Positions 13,854-62,651 of a stretch of DNA of 64,000 nt are shown here, piece after piece; the stretch's first letter is position 1, and every line of letters begins with the position of its first letter. Source of the DNA: an uncultured Candidatus Peribacteria bacterium (GTDB lineage: Bacteria; Patescibacteriota; Gracilibacteria; 1-14-2-50-48-13); contig CAYGEY010000002.1 in NCBI GenBank assembly GCA_964349065.1, positions 907 to 64,906 of the forward strand. The letters are read 5' to 3'. A model generated the notes under the pieces. That model had not been told where the DNA came from and made no database searches. It worked only from the letters and a program-made list of their open reading frames with translations. Both the position numbers and the translations under genes were made by a program.

Positions 13854-16268
13854 TTAAGCAGTCTTCTGTTCCAACTTGTATTTGGGTGTCTGTATATCCG
13901 TCTTCATATCAGTTTTTACCGGCTCAATCTTTGTCCCGCCTTCAGGTGCAATATACGTAACTATTCTTCGATAATTGTTGTCAGCTCTATATCCTTCTCC
14001 ACCACCTTGAAACAGAACATTAATTCCTCCTTTTGTTAGATTCAAGCTTGTTTTGATACTATTAACATACTCTGTAGGAGGTTCTTTTTTCCAAGAAGTG
14101 TATGTATTTACATCAATCTCGTGTGTTTTGCTATATGTACCATCTGGCTGTTTTACATCCAAAGTATCATTTGTCATCGTTAATACTTTTGTTCCAGGCA
14201 CCCTTGGAAAATTTATCATAAAATCAAGTTTCGGATGCATGAAACCTCGAATTTTTCCATCTTTTATTATTGCAATCATGCCTTCTTTTGCGATAAGTTC
14301 AGCAGAAGGGGGATAGACTGTTAATGCCTTTAGAGCATTTTTCTCTTCATCCTTAAGTCGTTCTCCCTTTTTATTAGAAAAAGTAAATGTGTCTTTAATT
14401 TCTTCTACACTTAGTGGAATATTGTCCTTGTGATATTCATCAAAAATCTTAGTCACCATTTGAGTATATGTTTGTGGATTACTCATATCTTCTTTTTTCC
14501 ATAAATCAGAAGAAACTCCCTTTATCAAATAATGTTGCTTATGCTCAGGATCATCAAACTTTGTCTTCAATTTATCCATATATGTTTTTATTTCTGGCGT
14601 CTCTAGCGATTTAGTAAGAGTATTCGCAGGCTTCTCATTCCCATGATTTTCCGGGTTAGTACCTGGCTTCGCCGCTGTTTGATCTAGTTTATCTGCTTCT
14701 CCCGGGAAATTAGCTTTGAAATTCCCCATAATTTCTGTATACTTGGTAACCAGTTGGTATTTATCATTTTCTTGATTCATGTCAAAATCAACTGGTTTGC
14801 CATCCTTATCTTTCACTGTATTTGTACCATTCGTTTTCCAATCTTTCCCTTTCAAAGCAACTGCAGAGGCATAGATGTCTTTTATCGCCTTTACCTTTTC
14901 GTCATAAATCTTTGAATTTGCCTCTGTCATCGGACTATTAGACCTAAATTTTACTGCAGTTCCAATCAAGCCGAAATAATTCCAATATGGCTGTTCAAGT
15001 GAATATACAATGTTCATTTTGTCATCTTTATCTTTGATATCTATACTTTTATTCCATTTCTCTTTTGCTAAATCTTCACGAGATATTTCTTTGTTATCTT
15101 TTGTTTCAACATACGCGGCATCCTGTTGAAGGATTGCAAATGCGATTTCATGACGTAGAAAAATTGATGCTTCAGCCGGAGAACCTTTTGGTAAAGTGGC
15201 GCTTTGCAATACATCCACGTATTTCTTAATTGCATCCCGGGTTGGTTGAATGTTGTTTTTATCAGCGGAGATTCGTAATTGTTTTGTTTCTTCACCGATC
15301 CCCAGGACTGCGGACTTAAATTCATTGTAGTCTTTTGCTACATTGAGTTTATTACTCAGAGAGTCAAAGTTTTTTAAGTTGTCGATTTTTGGGAGGGTTT
15401 CTGTGGTGGGTTTTGTGAGTTCAGTGTTTTGTGCAGTAGTAATCATATCTTCTCCCTTTTTATCAATTACTCCTGCATCTTTACTCTCAGAACTTGAAAG
15501 ATTACTCAAATCAGGATTTCGACCTCTGCTGACTTTCACTCCGGCCATATCGCCTAAAACAGCTCTAATATTGCCTTTTAACTCTTCTCTGTTCATGGAT
15601 TTCACACCTAACTGAAAAATTTCTTTCATCTGACCCAAGCGAGCTTTGTCATCCAATCCGGATTTTAGATTATAATTGTATGGAAGCTTATCCAAACACA
15701 TTTTATAAACATCTGAAACTCCTTTATCGATCATTCCTTTATCTTTCAATAAATCCAGTAACTTCGTTTGCAGTCCGCTATCTGAGAACTCTTCAAAAGA
15801 TTTACCTTCAAATCCATATACTTTACTCATTTGCTGAGTGATGTTTTGTTCAAAGGCAGTAATTGCTTGATCCAGATTCTCTTTTTCCTGTATCAATTCT
15901 TCTACTTTGGGCCTCAGTTCATCTTTCAATGCAAGAGTTCTGTCAGTTTTTAGTCCTGAATTAAATGTTTCGGCAATAGACATCAACACACCTTTATACT
16001 GAGCTGCAGGCAATGTATCCAGTTGTTGTCGTAAACCTTGAACCGTATTCAGAGCTTCTTCAAATCTTTTTTGATCTGCAACAATATCATTTTCTTTGAT
16101 ATCAGATTTAGCAATAATGTCTTTCATCATTTGCATTTTTGATTGCGCATTTCGAATTCTGTTATCAAGGTTATCTTTAATCTTTTGGAGAGAGTTTTCT
16201 ACTTTATTCTCATTGCCACCATTGCCCACTTCAGGAGTAATTGCTTGATAATTTATATTAAATCTCAT
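13854..16268 (-). CDS. large Lys/Asp/Glu-rich hypothetical protein (about 804 aa)
   Basis: The ORF track gives 836 aa. The likely start is MRFNINYQ at 16268, 4 nt after the stop of 16273..16584. Long helical N-terminal half; no known motif. Confidence 0.6.
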   Translation of the reverse strand: MRFNINYQAITPEVGNGGNENKVENSLQKIKDNLDNRIRNAQSKMQMMKDIIAKSDIKENDIVADQKRFEEALNTVQGLRQQLDTLPAAQYKGVLMSIAETFNSGLKTDRTLALKDELRPKVEELIQEKENLDQAITAFEQNITQQMSKVYGFEGKSFEEFSDSGLQTKLLDLLKDKGMIDKGVSDVYKMCLDKLPYNYNLKSGLDDKARLGQMKEIFQLGVKSMNREELKGNIRAVLGDMAGVKVSRGRNPDLSNLSSSESKDAGVIDKKGEDMITTAQNTELTKPTTETLPKIDNLKNFDSLSNKLNVAKDYNEFKSAVLGIGEETKQLRISADKNNIQPTRDAIKKYVDVLQSATLPKGSPAEASIFLRHEIAFAILQQDAAYVETKDNKEISREDLAKEKWNKSIDIKDKDDKMNIVYSLEQPYWNYFGLIGTAVKFRSNSPMTEANSKIYDEKVKAIKDIYASAVALKGKDWKTNGTNTVKDKDGKPVDFDMNQENDKYQLVTKYTEIMGNFKANFPGEADKLDQTAAKPGTNPENHGNEKPANTLTKSLETPEIKTYMDKLKTKFDDPEHKQHYLIKGVSSDLWKKEDMSNPQTYTQMVTKIFDEYHKDNIPLSVEEIKDTFTFSNKKGERLKDEEKNALKALTVYPPSAELIAKEGMIAIIKDGKIRGFMHPKLDFMINFPRVPGTKVLTMTNDTLDVKQPDGTYSKTHEIDVNTYTSWKKEPPTEYVNSIKTSLNLTKGGINVLFQGGGEGYRADNNYRRIVTYIAPEGGTKIEPVKTDMKTDIQTPKYKLEQKTA

Positions 16269-16272
16269 TTTC

Positions 16273-16584
16273 TTATAATTGATGAAATAAATTTTTCCCT
16301 TCTTCCTCTTCTTTTGACTTTTGCATTTGCTCTGCTTTAGCCAACGCATCTCGCTGAACATCATTCATATATTGACTCAGAAGAGTCGTAATACCATCCA
16401 AAGCCTGCAATTGCTGGACCTTTAATGGGATAACAGTGTCAATAAACGTTTGAACAGCCTGCTCAATCTCTGCGATTGCATCCGGTGAAGTATCCTTGGA
16501 TTCCAATAAATCCTTGATGATATTCACTTGTGATTGAGGTAGAACATTGGTTTCAGCTAACTTTTGCCAAAGAGGAGTATCCAT
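16273..16584 (-). CDS. small helical acidic hypothetical protein
   Basis: 103 aa, immediately upstream of the large orphan and apparently coupled to it. Confidence 0.5.
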   Translation of the reverse strand: MDTPLWQKLAETNVLPQSQVNIIKDLLESKDTSPDAIAEIEQAVQTFIDTVIPLKVQQLQALDGITTLLSQYMNDVQRDALAKAEQMQKSKEEEEGKNLFHQL

Positions 16585-29914: not shown

Positions 29915-30175
29915 TTAATAAATTATCGTCCCACGATTTGAACTACTTGAACTTGTCCCAGTCCCCTGACTCCCAAAATTAATTATAAACATCAATGCCA
30001 AAAGCAGAAAAAAAATCCCGGCCATCAGTTGAACAAAGTACATCCACTTGGAAAACGGACGTAGGGCAGACACGCCTTGCATCTGTTTTTTCAGAAGTAA
30101 GTTGATCACCGCAAATGTTACCGCTGCGATGATCCATACTATTATAAGAAGAATTTGTGTTATTGTCGGTGTCAT
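29915..30175 (-). CDS. small membrane protein (2 TM)
   Basis: 86 aa. The start overlaps the ileS stop by 4 nt (ATGA-type coupling). Confidence 0.45.
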   Translation of the reverse strand: MTPTITQILLIIVWIIAAVTFAVINLLLKKQMQGVSALRPFSKWMYFVQLMAGIFFLLLALMFIINFGSQGTGTSSSSSNRGTIIY

Positions 30176-33100
30176 GCGTTTTTGGATACAGTTTCAATCC
30201 CAACTATACACTCTCCGTCAAAGAGAGAAAGCGTTTTTGTGAGCTTCGGCATATCACCGCTATATGAGAGATCAAGGGCGAGAGTCTCCTTGCGAATATA
30301 ATCCCCCCATTCCTCAAGCATCTTGGTCAGCTCCTGTGCAATATTTCCGGAAATTAAAATGGTGATATTGTCTGTCACTGCAAGATCATTGTCTTTACGT
30401 AAATCCTGGATTTCACGCACCAGATCCCTTGCGGCACCTTCACGAATGAGTAATTCGTCAATTGTCGTATCAAGTGCAACAACAATCCCGGCCATACTCT
30501 GCGCAGAAACTCCTTCGTGACTTTCGTACCCGACTTCTACCTCGTGTGGTTCTAAAATCATTCCCATGATTTCAATGGATCCATCATCTTTGAGTATAAA
30601 ATTCCCAGCTCTTGCCTCTTTAATAACCTCCTGCACCTTGCCTCCGAGCCTCGGCCCAAGCACCTTAGCATCCGGCTTCGCCACCGGTTTTCCAAGTTGT
30701 TCCGGATCTTTTTCAAACCGGATTTCTTTCACATTAAGCTCCTCTAAAATTACCTCTTTGTATTTTTCCAGCTGTGTAATTTTCAAAGATTTCGGCAGAG
30801 CAATTTGTGCTAAGCGTAGTGGCATTCGCACCTTTATTTTTTCTTTTGAACGGATGGCAAGCCCAAGTTGCACAATAGCTCGAACTGCATTTACTTCTTT
30901 AATAAGATTTTCATCAAACCAATTATTTTTATTGGTATCAAAGTAGGAAAGATGCACAGACTCAGCATTTGGAACGAGATTCATGTACATTTCCTCAGTA
31001 ATGAAAGGAGTGATTGGAGCCAGGAGTTGGCAAAACCGGATTAATACCTCGTGAAGCGTTGAATACGCATTATTTTTATCAGTATCATTTTCACTCTTCC
31101 AAAATCTGCGACGAGAGCGACGGATATACCAGTTGGTCATCGCATCCATACTCGCAAGCAGGATATCTGTCACACCTTTGAGATCATATTTTTCCATTGC
31201 CTCGTGGTAGAGCCTCTCCGTGTTTTCCATTTCAGAGAGCATCCAGAGATCAAGATTGTGCGAAATATTAGTTAAATCTTTTGATTCAATATCCCAATTA
31301 TCAACATTGGCATACGTCATAAAAAACGTGTACGAATGCCAGAGCGGAAGGATCATTTTTCGGAGAGTTTCTTCGACGCCTTTTTTACTGAAACGTAAGT
31401 TTTCTCCATGGACGACAGGTGAGTTCATGAGGTAAAACCTGAGGCTATCTGCTCCAAGTTCAGTAAAAATCTCAGAAGGATCAGGATAGTTTTTGAGCCG
31501 TTTGGACATTTTTTTCCCATCCTCAGCTAATACTAGGCCGTTCACCACAACATTTTTAAATGCAGGATTATCTTGACCAAGTCCTGATGCACCGTCTGTT
31601 AATGCGGTTGCGAGCACCATCAATGTATAAAACCAGCCCCTTGTCTGATCAGCTCCTTCGGCAATGAAATCTGCCGGAAAATTTTTCCTGGTTTTTTCAA
31701 GATTTTCAAATGGATAATGATTTTGTGCATACGGCATAGAACCTGATTCAAACCAACAATCAAAAACCTCCGGAACACGGTACATCAATTCACCTTTTTC
31801 TGAAGTGAGCGTTATCCCATCCACAAAGTGTTTGTGAAGATCAAATTCTTTTCCGGAGAGACTATCAAGAAATAAGGTTTTTGCTGAGCCGGTTTCGAGC
31901 TCATTGATGGTCGACATTTTTTCAGGAGATTTATTCCGAAGTACGTATTCCACCACTTGGAGAACAGCGGCATGGGAAACTATGTATACCGTTTTTCCTG
32001 CATGGTTTTCTTTTATGTCTTTCAATAAAGAAGTCAGGCGTTTTGCAATATCTTCATAACTTTCACTTCCTGTTGTTCTTTTTCCGGAAAAATATTCTTT
32101 TGACCCGCTTAGCTTTTCGTATACATCTATTTTAGAAAGCACTTCTTCCGTGTCCAATTTCTTACCTTCCCAATCACCTCCGTTCATTTCTATAAGACCA
32201 CCATCTATTTTTATTTCAATAGTTCCACCAAAAAATTTCTCCACAGCTTGAGCGGTCTCACGTGCTCTGAGAATGGGAGAAGAATATATCACATCCGGGC
32301 GTTCCTCAACATATTTCATTAATGTATCAGAAACCTGTTTTTTGCCTTTTTCGGTGAGGTGATGTTTATCAATTTCTGATGACCAAATATTAGTAACGTT
32401 CTTTTCAGATTCGCCATGTCGTAATAAAACTATCTTCGTGAGACGACCTTTTGCTTCATGATATAGTTCATCAAGCCCTGCAATTACCTTCATTTCTAAT
32501 CCGTCTTTCGTGCGCCAGATCGGCAATGGAGTTCCCCAAAACCTGTTTCGGGAAATCGCCCAATCTCGGACATTTTCTAACCACTTCCCAAATCTGCCGT
32601 CCTTCATGTGATCCGGTACCCAATGCACTTTTGCATTATTTGCGATGAGTTTTTCTTTGAGCTCTGTCACTCGTACAAACCATGTTTCGATAGGTTTGTA
32701 GATTAAAGGGGTGTCTGTTCTCCAACAATGAGGGTAGCTGTGCATGATGGTTTCTTGCTTCACTAAAGATCCATCATTTTTTAGACGTTCGATAATCGGT
32801 TTATTCGCATCAAACACGAGCATATTTTCAAAGTCTTTCACCTCATGAGTAAATGTCCCGTCATCCTGGATGGGATCCATGATCTCGATCCCTTTTTCAT
32901 TGATAACACGGAAGTCATCTTCACCATATGGGGCTAAATGTACAATCCCTGTACCATCTCCTTCTGTGACGAAATCAGCTAGGACAGTCTGGAAGGCACC
33001 TTCCTCAGCTTTATGTGCAAAGTATGGAAAAATCGGAGTGTATTTCAAATTGGCAAGATCTGAACCATGAAAAGTTGTAAGGATTTGGTATTGAGCTTCA

Positions 33101-33930
33101 TCCTTGTAATATTTTGATAGCGAAGATTTTGCCAAAACATATTGTTCATTTTTTTCAACATCCTTGATGAGAACATATTCCATTTTTTCTCCCAAAGCGA
33201 GCAAAAGGTTGGATGGAAGGGTCCACGGGGTTGTTGTCCATGCCAAAATATAAATAGGTTCACTATTTTCAAATCGAAAATTGGGCAAAAGAAACTTGAC
33301 TGTCACTGCCGGATCTTGCCTGTCTTGATAATTTTGTTGTGCTTCAAAATTAGAAAGCGGGGATGAAATACGGTAGGAAAAAGGCACTACTTTTTTACCA
33401 AGATAGACGAGATCCTTTTTCCAAAGCTCAGCAAACACCCACCAGATTGACTCCATAAACCATGGCTCCATAGTCTTATAATCGTCGTCCATATCCACAA
33501 ATCGACCCAGACGCTCAATCATTACTTTCCATTCATCAGCATATTTTAATATAGTTTGACGACAGCTTTCATTAAATCGATCTACACCGTATTCTTCGAT
33601 CTCAAGCCGAGATCCAAGTCCAAGTTCCTTTTCTTTTTCAAACTCGATAGGAAGACCATGGCAATCCCATCCCCAACGCCGATCCACGCGGTACCCGCGC
33701 ATTGTCCAATACCTCGGCACCATGTCCTTCATGACCGAGGCGAGGATATGACCATAATGAGGAAGCCCGGTCGCGAAAGGGGGTCCGTCGTAAAAAGTAT
33801 ATTCTTTGTCTGTGGATCTTGACGTGATAGATCTCCTAAAAATCTGCTCTTTTTTCCAAAAATCGAGAATACGTTCTTCTAATTTTGGAAAAGATTCTTT
33901 GGGGTTCGGTTTTTTGAAGTGGTGAGTCAT
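30172..33930 (-). CDS. ileS: isoleucyl-tRNA synthetase, type 2 (eukaryote-like), with nested histidine-phosphatase domain
   Basis: PPFATGLPHYGHIL (HIGH) and KMSKRLKNYPDP (KMSKS); FDCWFESGSMPYAQ and DQTRGWFYTL track the recalled human IARS1. ATG at 33930 (MTHHFKK) chosen; the track start at 33975 is TTG inside the leader. Confidence 0.95.
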   Translation of the reverse strand: MTHHFKKPNPKESFPKLEERILDFWKKEQIFRRSITSRSTDKEYTFYDGPPFATGLPHYGHILASVMKDMVPRYWTMRGYRVDRRWGWDCHGLPIEFEKEKELGLGSRLEIEEYGVDRFNESCRQTILKYADEWKVMIERLGRFVDMDDDYKTMEPWFMESIWWVFAELWKKDLVYLGKKVVPFSYRISSPLSNFEAQQNYQDRQDPAVTVKFLLPNFRFENSEPIYILAWTTTPWTLPSNLLLALGEKMEYVLIKDVEKNEQYVLAKSSLSKYYKDEAQYQILTTFHGSDLANLKYTPIFPYFAHKAEEGAFQTVLADFVTEGDGTGIVHLAPYGEDDFRVINEKGIEIMDPIQDDGTFTHEVKDFENMLVFDANKPIIERLKNDGSLVKQETIMHSYPHCWRTDTPLIYKPIETWFVRVTELKEKLIANNAKVHWVPDHMKDGRFGKWLENVRDWAISRNRFWGTPLPIWRTKDGLEMKVIAGLDELYHEAKGRLTKIVLLRHGESEKNVTNIWSSEIDKHHLTEKGKKQVSDTLMKYVEERPDVIYSSPILRARETAQAVEKFFGGTIEIKIDGGLIEMNGGDWEGKKLDTEEVLSKIDVYEKLSGSKEYFSGKRTTGSESYEDIAKRLTSLLKDIKENHAGKTVYIVSHAAVLQVVEYVLRNKSPEKMSTINELETGSAKTLFLDSLSGKEFDLHKHFVDGITLTSEKGELMYRVPEVFDCWFESGSMPYAQNHYPFENLEKTRKNFPADFIAEGADQTRGWFYTLMVLATALTDGASGLGQDNPAFKNVVVNGLVLAEDGKKMSKRLKNYPDPSEIFTELGADSLRFYLMNSPVVHGENLRFSKKGVEETLRKMILPLWHSYTFFMTYANVDNWDIESKDLTNISHNLDLWMLSEMENTERLYHEAMEKYDLKGVTDILLASMDAMTNWYIRRSRRRFWKSENDTDKNNAYSTLHEVLIRFCQLLAPITPFITEEMYMNLVPNAESVHLSYFDTNKNNWFDENLIKEVNAVRAIVQLGLAIRSKEKIKVRMPLRLAQIALPKSLKITQLEKYKEVILEELNVKEIRFEKDPEQLGKPVAKPDAKVLGPRLGGKVQEVIKEARAGNFILKDDGSIEIMGMILEPHEVEVGYESHEGVSAQSMAGIVVALDTTIDELLIREGAARDLVREIQDLRKDNDLAVTDNITILISGNIAQELTKMLEEWGDYIRKETLALDLSYSGDMPKLTKTLSLFDGECIVGIETVSKNA
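31852..32445 (-). other. inserted histidine phosphatase (phosphoglycerate-mutase-like) domain within IleRS (track residues 511-708)
   Basis: KIVLLRHGESEKN (RHG catalytic His), SSPILRARETA, GGDWEG and YIVSHAAVL (second His). It lies between IleRS segments ..LDELYHEAKG and KEFDLHKHFVDG, which are adjacent in canonical type 2 IleRS. Confidence 0.8.
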
Positions 33931-34103
33931 GGTAAACAAAAAATGCAGAATAAAATATTTCTGCAATCGGCCCAAAAAATTTGGGAGGTACCACCGAGAG
34001 CTATACTTGATTTGGTTTGAGGAGTCTACTGGGATTTTGGCCCTTTCTTTCCTCTACGCTTCACTCATGTGAAATCCCGTTGATAGCGGGTTGGCGTATT
34101 TGA
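33931..34103 (-). promoter_or_regulatory. T-box riboswitch leader of ileS (Ile specifier AUC, ultrashort stem I type)
   Basis: Minus strand, in order. Promoter TTCAAT-17-TATAAT (34110..34138). Hairpin CCCG-CUAUCAA-CGGG with AUC+A in the loop (AUC at 34082..34084). Stem with GAA/AGUA internal loops. T-box core UCGG-UGGUACCU-CCCAAA-UUU-UUUGGG-CCGA (GGUGGUACC at 33987..33995). Hairpin UGCAGAA..UUCUGCA plus U6 (33938..33965). Confidence 0.7.
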
Positions 34104-55825: not shown

Positions 55826-56092
55826 TTGATCACAGCTCAAAAATCAGAAATTTCTCAGGTATTTAGAGATTTTGCTCAAAAGAGACATAACATAAAAATT
55901 CAAACAATTTTTGGAGGAACTCCAACAAATTTTACCAGCAACAAGGCACTCAATGATGCTCTGAAAGAAGCTCAAGCAAACCAGCAACAAGCACAAATCA
56001 CCTGGAACTTGATTGTCTTCAACTACCACCATGTACATTTGTTTCCACAGGGTGGAAATCAAAGGATTGTGGTGACCAAAAAATATAAATAA
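55826..56092 (+). CDS. small hypothetical protein, paralogue of 56918..57196
   Basis: 88 aa, TTG start 7 nt after AAGGA. Shares FRDFAQK..I.I..I....P.NF...ALKEA...TWN....Y..VHL with the paralogue. Confidence 0.5.
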   Translation: MITAQKSEISQVFRDFAQKRHNIKIQTIFGGTPTNFTSNKALNDALKEAQANQQQAQITWNLIVFNYHHVHLFPQGGNQRIVVTKKYK

Positions 56093-56148: not shown

Positions 56149-56757
56149 TTAGATGTTGCTATTCAATAGTGCATCAACCTCTTGCCAGGCAGAACCTATA
56201 TCAGTTATATTATCTTCGAACGAATCTTCCAGTCCCTTCCTTCGAATAAATACTACAAGTAACTGACCAACATAGGCATGGAGCTTCACAAGATAATTTA
56301 CTGCATCTTCAGTTGGCATTGCAATGAGCTTGTCAATCTTCAACAGTGAAGTATCTGACTCATTTTTAGCCAAAGATGAGCATTCACATACAACTACTTC
56401 TATCTGTTTTTCCTCAATCTCTTTTTCTAAAAGGCATTTCAGCCAAGAATAGGCTTTCGATCCTTTCATTGCTCTTTTCGCCATTCTCTCTGCTACCGGG
56501 TCGCTGTCAGATTGATAGAATGCATAGATATTTTTTATGTTTTCATGAACCTTTTGTAATTCTTCCTCTGTAAATTTAATGCTTACATCAAGCAATTCTT
56601 GACGAATCACACTCAGCGCTGGCCGGTCTAGATTTTTCAATAAATGAAATCTTTTGCCGACATACTTTGACATCACAGTGATAGCTCTCAAGACAGGTTC
56701 ATTTCCATAGAGAAAATCTAAATGTTTGATTAGTCTATTTAGATCAATTTCTAACAT
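56149..56757 (-). CDS. hypothetical helical protein
   Basis: 202-aa ORF lying between the two paralogous small genes, on the opposite strand. Confidence 0.5.
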   Translation of the reverse strand: MLEIDLNRLIKHLDFLYGNEPVLRAITVMSKYVGKRFHLLKNLDRPALSVIRQELLDVSIKFTEEELQKVHENIKNIYAFYQSDSDPVAERMAKRAMKGSKAYSWLKCLLEKEIEEKQIEVVVCECSSLAKNESDTSLLKIDKLIAMPTEDAVNYLVKLHAYVGQLLVVFIRRKGLEDSFEDNITDIGSAWQEVDALLNSNI

Positions 56758-56917: not shown

Positions 56918-57196
56918 ATGTATGAATCTGAAAAAGATTTCAGAGAATATGCACGAAAAAACTATGGAATCGAAATCGGTATAATTCACGATCAGATTCC
57001 TTATAATTTTCAAAATCTTCCTCATGTAGTTGCCGCACTAAATGAAGCATTTAGAAAAGCAAATACCGTCTGGAATTTTGAATTTTGTTATTTGTACGTA
57101 CATTTGACTACAAACACTCCTAATATATGCAATAGAAAAGTATATAAGAATGGAGTGTTTGAGGAAAATGAGTGGAGTCCACCTCTTCAAAGCTAA
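56918..57196 (+). CDS. small hypothetical protein, paralogue of 55826..56092
   Basis: 92 aa. AAGGA lies 12 nt upstream of the ATG. Motifs FREYARK..IEIGII...IPYNF...ALNEA...VWNF...YLYVHL. Confidence 0.5.
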   Translation: MYESEKDFREYARKNYGIEIGIIHDQIPYNFQNLPHVVAALNEAFRKANTVWNFEFCYLYVHLTTNTPNICNRKVYKNGVFEENEWSPPLQS

Positions 57197-58241: not shown

Positions 58242-58784
58242 CTATAAACCTTGTTTTTCAAGTATTTCATCTATTGAGCTTGAGAGGTCTTTGATCGTAC
58301 CGTTATTCATAATGCTATAATCAGCAAGTTTCATACATTCAAAAAGCCTTTGAACAGTGCCCGAATTCTCTAAACGCTCACGTTCAATAAACTCTTCCAA
58401 AGAATCAGCTTCACCTAACTTCCCCCTATCTTTTACTCTTTCAAATCGTGTTTTTGGATCAGCATCAATACTAATAAGAAAAAAATCTGAATTTTTCCTC
58501 AGAAAATCAATTTGCTCCAGCATTCTCATACCTGTAATTATCCCAATGGAATTTATTTGATCCAGTATATATTCAGCAAGATAAGTCGGCCCTTTTTCCT
58601 GAGAGATTGTTCTTCCTATTTCAATGAGAGTCTCCCTTGTAGTTGAAAGCCCTTTTGATAATGCGATATCTTTAATAGGTTGGCTTATCTGAAAATGTCC
58701 GGCTCCTGTTTTCTTGGCAATATATTCTGCGCATGTGTCTTTACCAACTCCTATTGGACCGATTATGCCTATGACTTTTTTCAT
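58242..58784 (-). CDS. P-loop deoxynucleoside-monophosphate kinase, T4 gp1-like
   Basis: Start MKKVIGIIGPIGVGKDTCAEYI at 58784. GxGKDT P-loop, FQISQPIKDIAL and C-terminal IMNNGTIKDLSSSI parallel the recalled T4 gp1 (SGKDTTADFI, YQLAGPIKDAL, ITNDGSLEELFSKI). Confidence 0.65.
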   Translation of the reverse strand: MKKVIGIIGPIGVGKDTCAEYIAKKTGAGHFQISQPIKDIALSKGLSTTRETLIEIGRTISQEKGPTYLAEYILDQINSIGIITGMRMLEQIDFLRKNSDFFLISIDADPKTRFERVKDRGKLGEADSLEEFIERERLENSGTVQRLFECMKLADYSIMNNGTIKDLSSSIDEILEKQGL

Positions 58785-58892
58785 GGATTGAATACAAATT
58801 ATGTGAGCATGATAAAGCAAGATTGATTCAAACACAATTCCATTTACTAAAAACTAAAACATTATAGGTTGTTTTATATTCCAAGAATAATA

Positions 58893-59972
58893 ATGCACCC
58901 AAACTCAAATCTCATATTGACATCCACTATCGTCACAGCCCCATCCGTGAACACACTCAATTTCGAGGCGTTGAAAATAGTACAAAATAAAAACATGCAT
59001 CCTATCTCCACAAGAGCCGGTGCATGTTATCAAACGAATGACGTGATCTACACTCTCCAAAACTCTCAAAATCGAGTTCCCACTCTCAGAGAAAAAATGC
59101 TGGAATACTTTCGAAAGGAAATGATGGCATATCTCAAAGGCGTTCGAGTGGTGGATGCAGAAAACGGTCTCGGTCATGCATCTAAATATTGGTTCAAAAT
59201 TGCAAATCACGAAAGAGAGATTAATTCCAATTACGGTCACTATATTTTTTTCCAGGAAATACCCGGGAGGCAGGAAATTTTTCCAAAAAATACACAGTTC
59301 TTCTGGGCGGCAGAGCGGCTTGTCGAGAATATCCATACACGTCGTGCCATTATCAACATAAATCAACTGCATCACAAACAAGATGAAGAATACATAGAAG
59401 ATCATGAAGTCGTCATTGAAAACAGCAGAGATTTCCCGTGCACAGTTTCATTACAATTTCAAGTTATTGAGAATAAGCTGCATTGTATTGCCAATGCTCG
59501 AAGCACGGATATTATCACCGGACTTCCCTATGACATTGCGTTTTTCTCGTTTGTGAATGAGCTCATGTACCGACACCTCAAACAAAATTATAGTAATGTT
59601 AACGAATCCATTCAAATTCTGGAGCTTGGACCAACTGTTATGAAATCCGAGTGCACGCAAATTTATGAAAATGCGCTTGCAGAAAAGGCTATAAAAGAGA
59701 TCATCGGGAAGACATATTTCAAACTAAATAAAGCCTGGGAGTTGCAAGGACCATGGTCTGTGGGTGCACTCATACATGATCTGTCAGAACATATTTCCTC
59801 CGTTGAAAAAAATAATGGAGCGGATAATTTTGATAGGAATGGTTCTACATATCCAAATGAAATAGCGGCTACTGATCCTATGCCGCAAATCACAGATGCC
59901 AATCTTGTACTTCATGAAATTTATTCAAAAGAGAAGCCAACTTCTGAAGTGATGAAATGGGTGTATCAATAA
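58893..59972 (+). CDS. thymidylate-synthase-superfamily pyrimidine C5 transferase, dCMP hydroxymethylase/methylase-like (T4 gp42-like)
   Basis: KEMMAYL (Glu), KYWFKIANHEREINSNYG, IHTRRAI (Arg pair), DFPC (Cys codon 59439..59441), ARSTD, and GLPYDIA (Asp codon 59532..59534) where ThyA has GLPFNIA. An extra C-terminal extension of about 95 aa has no recognisable motif. Confidence 0.75.
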   Translation: MHPNSNLILTSTIVTAPSVNTLNFEALKIVQNKNMHPISTRAGACYQTNDVIYTLQNSQNRVPTLREKMLEYFRKEMMAYLKGVRVVDAENGLGHASKYWFKIANHEREINSNYGHYIFFQEIPGRQEIFPKNTQFFWAAERLVENIHTRRAIININQLHHKQDEEYIEDHEVVIENSRDFPCTVSLQFQVIENKLHCIANARSTDIITGLPYDIAFFSFVNELMYRHLKQNYSNVNESIQILELGPTVMKSECTQIYENALAEKAIKEIIGKTYFKLNKAWELQGPWSVGALIHDLSEHISSVEKNNGADNFDRNGSTYPNEIAATDPMPQITDANLVLHEIYSKEKPTSEVMKWVYQ

Positions 59973-60016: not shown

Positions 60017-60592
60017 ATGCCAAAACTACTTCACTCAAAAAACTTCCTCAGCTTTCTCATCATCCTCGATATCTTCATGGCTATTGCCGCGACAGTTTAT
60101 GATTGGAACAAATATATGGAGCTCCCTTGGTATCTCCTGCTTTTTGCACCAATCTGCCCTGTTTATCCGCTGTTTATTGCCATTTGTTTTTGGTATGTAC
60201 TTCAGAAAAAAGAGATTCCAAGTCCCCTTCTCGCCTTTACATTGATGGGGGCGATTTCGTACGGGATTATGAATTTCATTTTTTATCCCCTGCATATGAT
60301 TTATGCGGGATTTACATTTCAGATTGTCGGGAATATGCTGTGGGTATTTGTGTATACTGTGCAAGCGCTTTTGTTAGTGAAAAAGCCACTTCATCCTTCG
60401 ATGCTTGCGATTGGTTTGATAGGGCTGTATTTTTTATGCAAAGATATTATTGATATGTTTTTTTATCGATTTTCGTATGTCATTGGGGATGGGTATCCGA
60501 TGTGGATTAAAGTAGTTTCATTCGTGTGTGTGCTGGTGATTCATGCAGGGTTGGTGGTGTGGATATGGAGGGGGAGGAAGAAATCCTCTTAA
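60017..60592 (+). CDS. polytopic membrane protein (about 6 TM; possibly DUF1405-like)
   Basis: 191 aa, hydrophobic throughout. The WYLLLFAPICPVYPLF motif only vaguely recalls DUF1405. Confidence 0.5.
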   Translation: MPKLLHSKNFLSFLIILDIFMAIAATVYDWNKYMELPWYLLLFAPICPVYPLFIAICFWYVLQKKEIPSPLLAFTLMGAISYGIMNFIFYPLHMIYAGFTFQIVGNMLWVFVYTVQALLLVKKPLHPSMLAIGLIGLYFLCKDIIDMFFYRFSYVIGDGYPMWIKVVSFVCVLVIHAGLVVWIWRGRKKSS

Positions 60593-61482
60593 ATTCCAAG
60601 CTCCTTTCGAACTTGGGCTAATGATTTAACTTCACCTTTTCTTACTTGTTCTCTGGCACTCTTGATATCATGTAAATATAACTTCTTCTCAACCAAACTT
60701 ATAAGTCTCTTATCAGTTTTCTCATTAATATTCACTGACCTTTCAAAAAACTCATACTTCCCAGATTCAGAGTTTTTTATCATGCTAGTGACGACTTCTG
60801 CGATAGCATCAAAAGGAATTTGTTCATTCGTATCAGGTTTCCTAACTAATGCTACAAGATCCTGTAAGGTCGATGTAGGAACCCATTCATTATAAACAAT
60901 TGGGGATTGGATCTTTTTTCCAACAGCCGCTTTGATTGTTGTCACATTTTGCAAAATTGCACCAAAAAGCCTTCTGTTGCCGTCAGAAACTATGAACTTG
61001 TTATCACGTTCAACAGCAAAGATCGGAAAATGATCCACATCGTTTACGTGCTTTTGGGAATTGAAATGATTATCTTTCATCTTTTGAAATTCATCAGCTG
61101 GAAGTTTTTGTATAAAATCCTGAACTTCTTTGACGGATGGTTGTAGACTTAGATGCTTAAATTCCTGAAAATTTACCCCAAAATGAAATTTATCAATTTC
61201 AACCATATCTTCACTCCATTCAATATTCTCTGACGTGAGCCAACTCACAATATTTTTAAGTTTAAAACCTCTGGAAATACCATGGACTCCATTCCAAAAA
61301 TCTCGAATTGGGGCGAAGGTATGATGACTGTTAAACCAAGTTCGAATCTCGTTATCTATTTTTACCCATGTTTGTTCGTCGTTGATAGTGGAAAAAAATT
61401 TCCGGAATTCATGGGAAAGGTAATCTTCAGCGATTTTTCTACGAAGCGGATCATAGATGTGGGATGGGTAGGGGTTTGGCAT
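60589..61482 (-). CDS. ParB/sulfiredoxin-fold (ParB-like nuclease domain) protein
   Basis: 297 aa. FPIFAVERDNKFIVSDGNRRLFGAILQNVTTIKAAV matches the ParB N-domain pattern P-I-x-V..(x)..I-V-x-G-x-R-R-x-x-A..G..I-x-A-x-V. Confidence 0.5.
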   Translation of the reverse strand: MPNPYPSHIYDPLRRKIAEDYLSHEFRKFFSTINDEQTWVKIDNEIRTWFNSHHTFAPIRDFWNGVHGISRGFKLKNIVSWLTSENIEWSEDMVEIDKFHFGVNFQEFKHLSLQPSVKEVQDFIQKLPADEFQKMKDNHFNSQKHVNDVDHFPIFAVERDNKFIVSDGNRRLFGAILQNVTTIKAAVGKKIQSPIVYNEWVPTSTLQDLVALVRKPDTNEQIPFDAIAEVVTSMIKNSESGKYEFFERSVNINEKTDKRLISLVEKKLYLHDIKSAREQVRKGEVKSLAQVRKELGI

Positions 61483-61543: not shown

Positions 61544-62101
61544 ATGAGCCTTTCAGAATTTCAAACCGACGTTCATAAATGGACCAAAAACTTTGAAACA
61601 CAGTATTGGCCAGAACACGAAATATATACTCGTCTTGGTGAAGAATTCGGCGAGCTCGCAGATGCGCTTGAAGGGGATTCAAATGAAAAAATTCAAAATA
61701 TTGCCGATGAGATAACAGATATCATGTTCACTGTTATTTGCTTAGCAAATAAGTTAGGACTTGATCTCAATGAAAGTTGGGAAAAAATGAAAGGTCAAAA
61801 TAATATCGAAGATTTGATGGAAAAATTTGATAAAAAATACACAACAGAACTTGAAATTTATGCCCGTCTTGGAGTGGAATCTGGCAAACTCGCCAGAGCG
61901 ATTAATACAAAATTTGGACATAAAAAAGCGAAGCCTGGTGAAATGACTCCAGAAATAGATGTTCAGATCACGAATATTATTTTCACTGTAAAGTGCTTGG
62001 CAAGTAAATTAGCAATTGATGTAGATGCTAGTTGGGAGAAGATGAAAAGAGAGAAATTTGAGAGGGATAAGGATAGGTATGAGCAAAAAGAGAAAAGTTA
62101 A
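61544..62101 (+). CDS. tandem MazG-type all-alpha NTP pyrophosphohydrolase
   Basis: Repeat 1 has the metal motif GEEFGELADA ... ADEITDIMF. Repeat 2 (GVESGKLARA ... DVQITNIIF) has lost most acidic ligands. Both repeats end ..SWEKMK. Confidence 0.8.
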   Translation: MSLSEFQTDVHKWTKNFETQYWPEHEIYTRLGEEFGELADALEGDSNEKIQNIADEITDIMFTVICLANKLGLDLNESWEKMKGQNNIEDLMEKFDKKYTTELEIYARLGVESGKLARAINTKFGHKKAKPGEMTPEIDVQITNIIFTVKCLASKLAIDVDASWEKMKREKFERDKDRYEQKEKS

Positions 62102-62166: not shown

Positions 62167-62424
62167 ATGAATAAAATACTTACATATAGTGTCCGATTTG
62201 AAGAGGCTGAAGAAGGGGGTTATAATGCTTTTGTACCTATTTTGCCAGGCTGTATGACGCAAGGTGATACTCTCGAAGAGGCAAAAGAAAATATAAAAGA
62301 TGCTATTACCGGATATATAGCAGTACTTAAAGAAGATAATGAGCCAATCCCTGTTGAAAGTTCTAAGCATATTTCCATTAAAATTAAGGTTCCAATAAAC
62401 ACTAGAGGATTAACATTAGCATAG
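62167..62424 (+). CDS. hicB: HicB-family antitoxin (UPF0150 fold)
   Basis: 85 aa. YSVRFEEAEEGGYNAFVPILPGCMTQGDTLEEAKENIKDAI. Confidence 0.8.
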   Translation: MNKILTYSVRFEEAEEGGYNAFVPILPGCMTQGDTLEEAKENIKDAITGYIAVLKEDNEPIPVESSKHISIKIKVPINTRGLTLA

Positions 62425-62444
62425 TGACTGATCGATTACCACAG

Positions 62445-62651
62445 ATGAAGCCAAGAGAAATGATCAAAGTCTTAGAAAAATTTGGTTTTTTTATACGTAG
62501 ACAATCCGGTAGCCATGTTTTTATGAAGAACTCAATGACAAATAGGACAACAGTTGTTCCATTTCACGCTAAAGATATTAACAGGGGTATTCTTTTTGAA
62601 ATACTAAAACAGGCTGGGATTACTCAAAAAGATTTTCTTGAAAAACGGTAG
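62445..62651 (+). CDS. hicA: HicA-family mRNA interferase toxin
   Basis: MKPREMIKVLEKFGFFIRRQSGSHVFMKN. The track's GTG at 62424, overlapping the hicB stop, is an alternative start. Confidence 0.85.
   Translation: MKPREMIKVLEKFGFFIRRQSGSHVFMKNSMTNRTTVVPFHAKDINRGILFEILKQAGITQKDFLEKR

Follow-up and report, generated by a model that had tools for sequence, protein, structure and literature searches.

Which nucleotide is modified by the thymidylate synthase (TS)-like enzyme encoded towards the end of a 64,000-nucleotide stretch of DNA from an uncultured Candidatus Peribacteria bacterium, and what group does it add? Open reading frames (ORFs) are numbered here along the window, meaning the full 64,000-nucleotide stretch, and residues along the 359-residue protein product. 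An earlier interpretation of the bare sequence (the sequence-only reading) had placed the enzyme closer to gp42, the deoxycytidine monophosphate (dCMP) hydroxymethylase of phage T4, than to the thymidylate synthase ThyA, a placement supported by sequence, alignment and fold. The interpretation favoured, with moderate confidence, is that of an active folate-dependent C5-hydroxymethylase of dCMP, not of deoxyuridine monophosphate (dUMP), belonging to a mostly cellular subfamily that, alongside a pyrophosphatase and sometimes a kinase, acts on the free nucleotide pool. The noteworthy part is that this subfamily, marked by a glutamine at the position of ThyA His207, is mainly cellular and is frequently paired with nucleotide pyrophosphatases (29 of 41 loci).

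58893..59972, forward strand: TS-superfamily gene, predicted dCMP C5-hydroxymethylase of the 'Gln207' cellular subfamily; 359 residues, stop codon TAA

Membership of the TS superfamily is far beyond chance by Pfam PF00303 (Thymidylat_synt; E = 2.4e-11, 43.7 bits against a curated cut-off of 24.3, matching residues 51-230 only), by phrog_160 of PHROG ('thymidylate synthase'; E = 8e-24) and by Foldseek, in which an AlphaFold2 model built from the family alignment (predicted local distance difference test score, pLDDT, 85.3; predicted template modelling score 0.86) matched approximately 400 TS-family chains with a probability of 1.00. The top solved relative in a phmmer search of PDB sequences is the T4 dCMP hydroxymethylase, 1b49 (E = 4e-7), which also ranks first by Foldseek against the PDB (1b49_A; E = 3.3e-14, TM-score 0.71 on the target), ahead of the cytidine monophosphate (CMP) hydroxymethylase MilA and, further down, canonical ThyA. 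Among viral predicted structures, the best fold match is the TS homologue Q52PP0 of Xanthomonas phage Xp15 (E = 1.9e-17). Three metagenomic contigs, of up to 85.7 kb, encode an identical protein. The ORF and all of the motifs highlighted by the sequence-only reading (DFPC, GLPYDIA, HTRRAI, ARSTD, KEMMAYL and SECTQIYEN) are encoded where it had placed them, and its parallel with gp42 holds, in that KYWFKIANHEREINSNYG in the 359-residue protein aligns with KIWQQVASSKGEINSNYG of gp42. The alternative genetic code of some Gracilibacteria, in which UGA specifies glycine, was dismissed as an issue, because the ORF stops at TAA and the standard code gives a coding density of 92%.

The simplest rival is that this is the organism's plain thymidylate synthase, converting dUMP to deoxythymidine monophosphate (dTMP), as database labels would have it. 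A word-indexed search found 55 homologues at 31-44% identity, in Bacillus, Lysinibacillus, Thermoactinomyces, Pectobacterium, Erwinia, Salmonella, Vibrio, Bradyrhizobium, Pseudomonas and many metagenomic sources, all of which carry the label 'thymidylate synthase' alone, as annotated by NCBI and JGI; furthermore, no second TS-family gene was found in the 64-kb window, and one divergent copy is frequent in reduced genomes. Yet every cut-off of the NCBIfam ThyA equivalogs is missed (best 35.2 bits against 327), and although E. coli ThyA (EC 2.1.1.45) has the same fold and the Cys, Glu58, Arg pair, Arg166, Ser167, Asp169, Tyr209 and Trp80 in common with the window protein, the two are only ~21% identical and Asn177, Leu143, His147 and His207 are replaced by Asp, Asp, Thr and Gln. 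In Enterobacteria and Bacillus, where an ordinary thyA is present, the Gln207-type gene is an extra copy, often plasmid-borne. A plain thymidylate synthase is therefore highly improbable.

Active-site residues and the predicted reaction

Residue equivalences come from a reference alignment (A2) of the 359-residue protein with homologues, gp42 (M37159.1) and E. coli ThyA (NC_000913.3), taken from database records; conservation was read from a 32-sequence family alignment (A1) and from a residue table (A3) covering 81 sampled matches of a profile search.

59118..59120, forward strand: codon of the catalytic Glu76 (ThyA Glu58, gp42 Glu60), invariant in A1 and A2
59340..59345, forward strand: codons of the phosphate-binding Arg150-Arg151 (ThyA Arg126/127, gp42 Arg123/124; A2, role from PMC5175136)
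59430..59441, forward strand: DFPC, with Asp180 and the nucleophile Cys183 (Cys codon 59439..59441; A2)
59499..59510, forward strand: RSTD, with Arg203, the deoxyribose-type Ser204 and Asp206, which retains ThyA Asp169
59532..59534, forward strand: codon of Asp214, at the base-specificity position (ThyA Asn177, gp42 Asp179; phmmer and A2), invariant in A1
59658..59666, forward strand: Gln256-Ile-Tyr258, replacing the 3'-hydroxyl pair of ThyA, His207-Leu-Tyr209 (A2, A3)

The catalytic set described in the sequence-only reading is indeed intact, with the Cys, Glu, Arg pair and R-S-x-D all aligning: Cys183 (ThyA Cys146, gp42 Cys148), Glu76, Arg150/151, Arg203 and Tyr258 (ThyA Tyr209, gp42 Tyr218) are invariant in A2, Arg203-Ser204-Thr205-Asp206 corresponds to ThyA Arg166-Ser167-Cys168-Asp169, and Trp100 to ThyA Trp80. 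The exchange of Asn for Asp on which that reading was founded is borne out by both A2 and the phmmer alignment to 1b49, in which GLPYDIA lies over GFRNDYA, placing Asp214 on gp42 Asp179 and ThyA Asn177; an Asn at the specificity position is thus excluded at the sequence level. The histidine it had found missing from the GDxHxY region is replaced by Gln256, in SECTQIYEN, at the position of ThyA His207 and gp42 His216, such that the 3'-hydroxyl-binding pair of gp42 (His216/Tyr218) is only half kept, as Gln256 and Tyr258. Two diagnostic positions of which it made no use also agree, with Asp180 at that of ThyA Leu143 and gp42 Asp145, and Asp206 at that of ThyA Asp169; Thr184 corresponds to ThyA His147 and gp42 Thr149. 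The Asp at positions 143, 177 and 169, the Ser at 167 and the Cys are each held in 79 of the 81 relatives in A3.

The protein consequently shares with T4 gp42 (EC 2.1.2.8; PDB 1b49, 1b5d, 6a9a) the Cys, Glu, Arg pair and R-S-x-D, as well as the specificity Asp, the Asp three residues before the Cys, the Thr after it and the segment EINSNYG. The two are ~20-25% identical, and the window protein differs in having Gln in place of His216, a conserved 30-residue tail that gp42 lacks and insertions of 13 and 49 residues.

Several of these positions have published meanings. An Asp at position 177 (N177D) brings a preference for dCMP and cytosine specificity (Lee et al. 2026, PMC13326640). At position 143, where T4-like hydroxymethylases and MilA have Asp or Glu, making L143D/E the hydroxymethylase mark, a bulky hydrophobic side chain is 'thought to' keep water out and so lead to a methyl product, and an Asn at position 169 (D169N) is the mark of flavin-dependent 5-hydroxy-dCMP synthases (PMC13326640). 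The latter type, exemplified by RB69 gp48 and DLP3 gp80, was ruled out, as Asp206 is retained at this position. Positions 177 and 147 were found to separate TS homologues of cytosine-modified contigs from those of unmodified ones better than any other positions (Yang et al. 2021, PMC8670742). With regard to the sugar, deoxyribose-preferring enzymes have Ser167/Ser169 and Arg126'/Arg123', as against Ala and Lys in MilA and BcmA, and a MilA A176S/K133R double mutant had its preference reversed and its CMP activity abolished (Zhao et al. 2016, PMC5175136). Read against these correlations, the combination of Asp177, Asp143, Asp169, Ser167, Arg126 and a residue other than His at 147 is the predicted signature of a cytosine hydroxymethylase of the folate and deoxyribose types, from which Gln207 is the one departure.

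From the conserved residues and the literature on T4 gp42 and ThyA, we infer dCMP as the substrate and a hydroxymethylated product. Cys183 would attack C6 of the cytosine ring, the N3 and N4 of which would be protonated and hydrogen-bonded by Asp214; the one-carbon unit would come from methylene-tetrahydrofolate; and the open, acidic Asp180 position would admit water to the exocyclic methylene, giving 5-hydroxymethyl-dCMP and not 5-methyl-dCMP. Support for the proposed chemistry comes from homology and from residue correlations.

The product might instead be 5-methyl-dCMP, as formed by ThyA N177D/N229D and in phage XP12, leading either toward dTMP through deamination or to 5-methylcytosine in DNA. 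The change from Asn to Asp is sufficient for a TS to become a dCMP methylase, according to literature cited in PMC13326640 and PMC8670742, dCMP deaminases are fused to one distant relative (P0257) and encoded near another (in phage Xp15), and a bypass of this kind could serve nucleotide-scavenging bacteria. However, at the Leu143 position, which is bulky and hydrophobic in the methyl-forming enzymes, the window protein, along with 79 of the 81 relatives, has Asp, as do gp42 and MilA; the top sequence and fold matches are hydroxymethylases; and the tail is unlike the C-terminus of ThyA, which shuts the active site for hydride transfer. Such a dCMP methyltransferase is accordingly regarded as decidedly unlikely.

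An alternative concerning the sugar is that the enzyme hydroxymethylates the ribonucleotide CMP, as the first step towards a small molecule, for example an antimetabolite or nucleoside antibiotic derived from 5-hydroxymethylcytosine. This is the function of MilA and BcmA (mildiomycin and bacimethrin; PDB 5jnh, 5b6d), cellular TS homologues in which, as in the window protein, the Asn177 and Leu143 positions are both Asp; MilA ranks second by fold, and the substitution of Gln for His in the subfamily affects a residue that contacts the sugar. By contrast, Ser204 and Arg150 are of the deoxyribose type, where MilA has Ala176 and Lys133' and BcmA likewise Ala and Lys, and the sequence match to MilA is weak (E = 0.012). 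This alternative is judged unlikely, although gene neighbourhoods bear on it in both directions, as described below.

The C-terminal tail and the loop insertions

The protein is longer than gp42 at three sites.

59880..59969, forward strand: family-conserved C-terminal tail, MPxI...IY...KW, residues 330-359, equivalent to the C-terminal segment of ThyA
59721..59870, forward strand: lineage-specific linker insertion, residues ~277-326, pLDDT 47-67, with one predicted helix
59379..59429, forward strand: 13-residue loop expansion before the catalytic Cys, residues ~163-179, a beta hairpin in the model

The sequence-only reading had described an extension of ~95 residues beyond the catalytic core, suggesting that it might form a partner-binding or second-activity domain. 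Part of this extension is real, as the linker between Tyr258 and Met330 comprises 71 residues relative to a median of 22 (range 18-28) in 31 homologues, an excess of ~49, but the last ~30 residues are a tail found across the family. The homologues in A1, 276-333 residues long, end in the same MPxI...DIY...KW tail, with Met330, Pro331, Ile343 and Trp356 invariant in all 32 sequences, whereas T4 gp42 is shorter; the MPxI segment aligns with the LPKL segment of ThyA and with the C-terminal tails of homologues from phages Xp15 and RsoM2USA, and the tail is modelled as two helices with a pLDDT of 94-97. The linker site appears to be a tolerant loop, since in the family member P0186 it holds 147 residues, rich in Ser and Pro. 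A Pfam search with the C-terminal 93 residues alone gave no match. Given a family-wide tail and a low-confidence insertion at a variable, tolerant site, a separate partner-binding or catalytic domain was rejected on the basis of the alignment, the linker counts and the model; the apparent extension is mostly an artefact of comparison with the short gp42, plus a loop insertion. The loop before the catalytic Cys, absent from the earlier description, is a second insertion of 13 residues (18 residues against a median of 5 in homologues), modelled with strands at 165-169 and 172-176.

The Gln207 subfamily and its gene neighbourhoods

An exhaustive profile search over 1.84 billion representatives gave 8899 matches at E <= 1e-3 and 275 at E <= 1e-30. 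The Asn-to-Asp switch alone is common, being present in nearly all sampled relatives, with thousands of relatives in the profile search. Gln at the 207 position, on the other hand, is confined to the ~21 best-scoring representatives in A3, which also bear the M-P...W tail, with the other 58, more distant relatives having His as in gp42; this restriction delineates a distinct 'Gln207' subfamily within the cytosine-hydroxymethylase-like branch. It comprises about 25 clusters at 50% identity, mainly cellular, from Patescibacteria, Dependentiae, Chlamydiae, Bacillota and enterobacterial plasmids. Sixteen matches lie on viral contigs, of which four are close (38-39% identity) and 12 are at 26-36%; in three of the four close ones, TS and NUDIX genes form the pair that is typical of Dependentiae-like cellular loci. 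The subfamily can be recognised by a sequence rule, consisting of Asp at the Leu143 and Asn177 positions, Gln at the His207 position and the MPxI...KW tail, and this signature corrects the label 'thymidylate synthase', which databases apply systematically to the relatives. Literature searches found no paper on the cellular Gln207 subfamily or its operon.

The gene neighbourhoods of the family were scanned using one genome per species, resulting in 41 loci in which ORFs were called and clustered with BLAST, and representatives annotated with Pfam. These span Parachlamydiales, Anoxychlamydiales, Chlamydiales, Dependentiae, Babeliales and many Patescibacteria (Saccharibacteria and others), as well as Thermoactinomycetaceae, Bacillus cytotoxicus, Enterobacterales, Burkholderia and others. 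A DUF84/NTPase_I-T gene, encoding a YjjX-like inosine/xanthosine triphosphatase (ITP/XTPase), is directly downstream in 19 of the 41, and a MutT/NudG-like NUDIX hydrolase gene directly downstream in 10 further loci, with an eleventh NUDIX locus, L034, having both. One or other type is found within two genes at 29 of the 41 loci, usually directly downstream, and a guanylate-kinase-like gene adjoins at four. L034, from Patescibacteria, arranges NUDIX, kinase, TS and DUF84 genes in one tight same-strand cassette, and across the Patescibacteria loci the partner genes are kinases and pyrophosphatases only.

The common denominator of these loci is free-nucleotide chemistry, in which a nucleoside triphosphate (NTP) is converted to the monophosphate (NMP) prior to C5 modification, with a downstream fate that depends on the lineage. 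The pyrophosphatase (NUDIX or DUF84 elsewhere, MazG in the window) would feed the enzyme by converting (d)CTP to (d)CMP, and in several lineages an NMP kinase would re-phosphorylate the product, the candidate in the window being a neighbouring gene similar to deoxynucleoside monophosphate (dNMP) kinases. The order of pyrophosphatase, hydroxymethylase and kinase is the logic of T4 gp56, gp42 and gp1.

Two sets of loci are more elaborate. In enterobacterial plasmid operons, the TS gene comes first, with genes for an 'inosine/xanthosine triphosphatase' (DUF84), an amidohydrolase, a PurN-like formyltransferase and a major facilitator superfamily (MFS) transporter, which are translationally coupled. 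Examples from E. coli and Salmonella, with overlapping gene ends, are L048 (NZ_CP075671.1), L049 (NZ_CP095450.1) and L050 (NZ_CP030205.1), and in pLS45-2 (L049) a divergent LysR regulator lies beside the operon; this operon is an easy starting point for experiments. In the Salmonella copy, L050, the PurN-like gene is absent and a carbamoyltransferase-C-domain gene is found just upstream, recalling phage 5-hydroxymethylcytosine (5hmC) carbamoyltransferase clusters. The Thermoactinomycetaceae loci L007, L009, L015 and L022 include radical S-adenosylmethionine, TS, DUF84 and amidohydrolase genes, three ATP-grasp ligases, an MFS transporter and a LOG-like nucleosidase, a cluster that resembles a natural-product pathway for a peptidyl-nucleoside or nucleobase.

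The resemblance of both sets to small-molecule pathways is the neighbourhood evidence in favour of a CMP hydroxymethylase. Against it stand the Patescibacteria loci, with their kinases and pyrophosphatases alone, and the window itself, where no nucleosidase, amidohydrolase, ligase or dedicated exporter gene was found beside the TS-like gene; in particular, no CMP N-glycosidase of the MilB/BcmB type, acting on the hydroxymethylated nucleotide, adjoins it, LOG-like genes being present only in the Thermoactinomycetaceae loci.

The phage relatives of a dCMP hydroxymethylase provide a different comparison. Xp15 gp36, which is 24% identical to the window protein, has the Asp/Asp signature and C-terminal tail type in common with it, and is encoded two genes from a carbamoyltransferase and adjoining a dCMP deaminase. 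Phage cytosine-hypermodification clusters (Xp15 and the MetaGPA 5hmC carbamoyltransferase) resemble the loci of the window family in the co-occurrence of pyrophosphatases of the PRA-PH/MazG type and NUDIX genes, and on cytosine-modified phage contigs PRA-PH has been reported alongside TS of the Asp177 type (PMC8670742). However, the phage hypermodification homologues keep His207, whereas the window protein has Gln and is chromosomal, without a carbamoyltransferase or glycosyltransferase. T4 gp42 operates in a phage setting of dCTPase, dNMP kinase and DNA glucosyltransferases; the setting in the window is cellular, with analogous kinase and MazG genes nearby and no glycosyltransferase.

Nucleotide-level cytosine hydroxymethylation has so far been associated with phages, as a counter-defence of their DNA, and with two antibiotic pathways. 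The same active-site signature here defines a coherent subfamily found chiefly in cellular genomes, many of them belonging to scavengers of host nucleotides; should the predicted chemistry be true, these cells deliberately make 5-hydroxymethyl-cytosine nucleotides. Candidates for their purpose are DNA marking, defence through the nucleotide pool, an exported antimetabolite and salvage. At two loci, L016 (9277..10623 and flanks) and L023, genes for TLC/NTT-type nucleotide transporters lie on either side of the TS-NUDIX pair, which suggests a connection with nucleotides imported by host-dependent bacteria. A more speculative proposal, to which only a small probability is attached, is that such bacteria (Patescibacteria, Dependentiae and Chlamydiae) use a phage-style, pre-replicative 5-hydroxymethyl-dCTP route, either carrying 5-hydroxymethylcytosine in their own DNA or releasing or injecting the nucleotide into a host or competitor. 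If true, this route would be the first nucleotide-level cytosine hydroxymethylation to serve a cell, the others belonging to viruses or antibiotic clusters.

Variation in domain content is also seen among the relatives. N-terminal extensions of ~120-210 residues are present on the core-family proteins P0181, P0182 and P0184; that of P0184 has a sub-threshold match to Pfam AAA_17 (P-loop kinase-like), and those of P0181 and P0182, without a Pfam match, are kinase-like by eye only. More distantly, P0236 is fused to a thymidylate-kinase-like domain, in addition to the dCMP deaminase domain of P0257. Two proteins in A3, P0203 and P0264, have Pro at the position of the catalytic Cys along with further active-site losses, and are probably inactive derivatives. 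The N-termini of P0183, P0186 and P0187, judged by eye, are hydrophobic and resemble signal peptides, such that some host-associated bacteria may export the enzyme.

The locus within the window

The window represents an ordinary bacterial chromosome, encoding SecA, IleRS and phosphoketolase, with UvrA on the longer contig. Its SecA is 65-68% identical to proteins of Candidatus Gracilibacteria and ~55% identical to those of Peregrinibacteria and other Patescibacteria, identifying the organism as a bacterium of the Candidate Phyla Radiation, members of which generally depend on scavenged nucleotides. The idea that the locus is a compositional island was unsupported, with a GC content of 0.37-0.38 relative to ~0.40 across the window overall.

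58242..58835, reverse strand: P-loop nucleotide kinase, dNMP-kinase-like, a candidate partner, divergent from the TS-like gene
60017..60592, forward strand: 191-residue membrane protein, 44 nt downstream of the TS-like gene and possibly co-transcribed with it; sub-threshold DUF1405 match
60589..61482, reverse strand: gene for a 297-residue protein with no Pfam or PDB match and a weak match to a PHROG of unknown function
61544..62101, forward strand: tandem MazG / PRA-PH NTP pyrophosphohydrolase (Pfam MazG and PRA-PH; YpjD-like in a PDB sequence search)
62167..62651, forward strand: HicB antitoxin / HicA toxin pair, just downstream of the MazG gene

The MazG/PRA-PH gene, 1.6 kb downstream of the TS-like gene, is the candidate supplier of the monophosphate substrate. 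The kinase matches phrog_139 (deoxynucleoside monophosphate kinase; E = 3.8e-19) and Pfam AAA_18 and DNMK, and in a PDB sequence search only AdkA/UPF0200-like proteins. No terminator-like site was found in the 44 nt between the TS-like and membrane-protein genes, and promoter-like and terminator-like sites at the locus did not exceed the expectation from shuffled sequence. A ParB-like identity for the protein encoded at 60589..61482, considered on account of a 'DGNRR' motif, had no support from Pfam, the PDB or PHROG. No glycosyltransferase or glucosyltransferase, carbamoyltransferase or phage genes were found around the TS-like gene, nor did Pfam reveal a TIR domain, another effector or a hypermodification gene near it in the window. 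The linkage of the candidate pathway genes within the window is suggestive but not tight.

The proposed chemistry is also compatible with a role in an anti-phage or anti-competitor system acting on the nucleotide pool, whether by a triggered drain of dCTP into a dead-end nucleotide or by producing a modified poison or signal. A precedent is DS-4, a system of TS, dNMP kinase, DNA-hypermodification and TIR components from E. coli (DefensePredictor, Science 2026), which has been validated as anti-phage (PMC13092281) and pairs a cellular TS with a dNMP kinase as in the window, demonstrating that such enzymes can serve cellular immunity. The window kinase matches the kinase-like part of models of anti-phage dCTP deaminases (PADLOC dCTPase, E = 2.7e-19; NCBIfam, E = 2.7e-11), a HicAB pair is nearby, and the family is patchily distributed over taxa and plasmid-borne in Enterobacterales. 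Nevertheless, DS-4 was rejected as the same family, its TS, with 28% identity over 89 residues and no specificity Asp, being of a different subfamily, and its TIR and 5-hydroxymethyl-deoxyuridine DNA-kinase partners are absent from the window. PADLOC, applied to the TS-like protein and its neighbours, matches the kinase alone and not the TS-like protein, there is no TIR or other effector nearby, and the NCBIfam deaminase match, to the kinase part only, scores 43 bits relative to a cut-off of 400. A defence role is therefore very unlikely.

Several observations weigh against a dCMP hydroxymethylase coupled to a nucleotide pathway. The change from His207 to Gln at a sugar-contacting position is without a characterised precedent, leaving the preference for deoxyribose over ribose insecure, and literature searches found no biochemistry for any member of the Gln207 subfamily. 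The association between the Leu143 position and a hydroxymethyl product is a correlation, worded as 'thought to' in its source (PMC13326640). Within the window, the kinase is transcribed divergently, and the membrane-protein and opposite-strand genes intervene between the TS-like gene and MazG, making the linkage weaker than at other loci. No homology was found between the window kinase and either the guanylate-kinase-like partners or the domain fused to P0184, and it is analogous, not orthologous, to the kinases that partner the family elsewhere. Elsewhere, the three Chlamydiae loci have no pyrophosphatase, and the heterogeneity of the plasmid, Thermoactinomycetaceae and Chlamydiae contexts suggests that one chemistry may serve different ends.

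Other features of the window were noted in passing. An 836-residue ORF on the reverse strand (13854..16364) has no Pfam match at E <= 1e-3. Two small paralogous ORFs on the forward strand (55826..56092 and 56918..57196; 35% identity over 65 residues, E = 3e-8) are separated by a 202-residue ORF on the opposite strand (56149..56757), and none of the three matches Pfam or PHROG. The isoleucyl-tRNA-synthetase-like ORF, of 1267 residues on the reverse strand (30172..33975), contains an unusual insertion, with Pfam identifying a histidine-phosphatase domain (His_Phos_1) at residues 515-690, between the halves of the class I synthetase.

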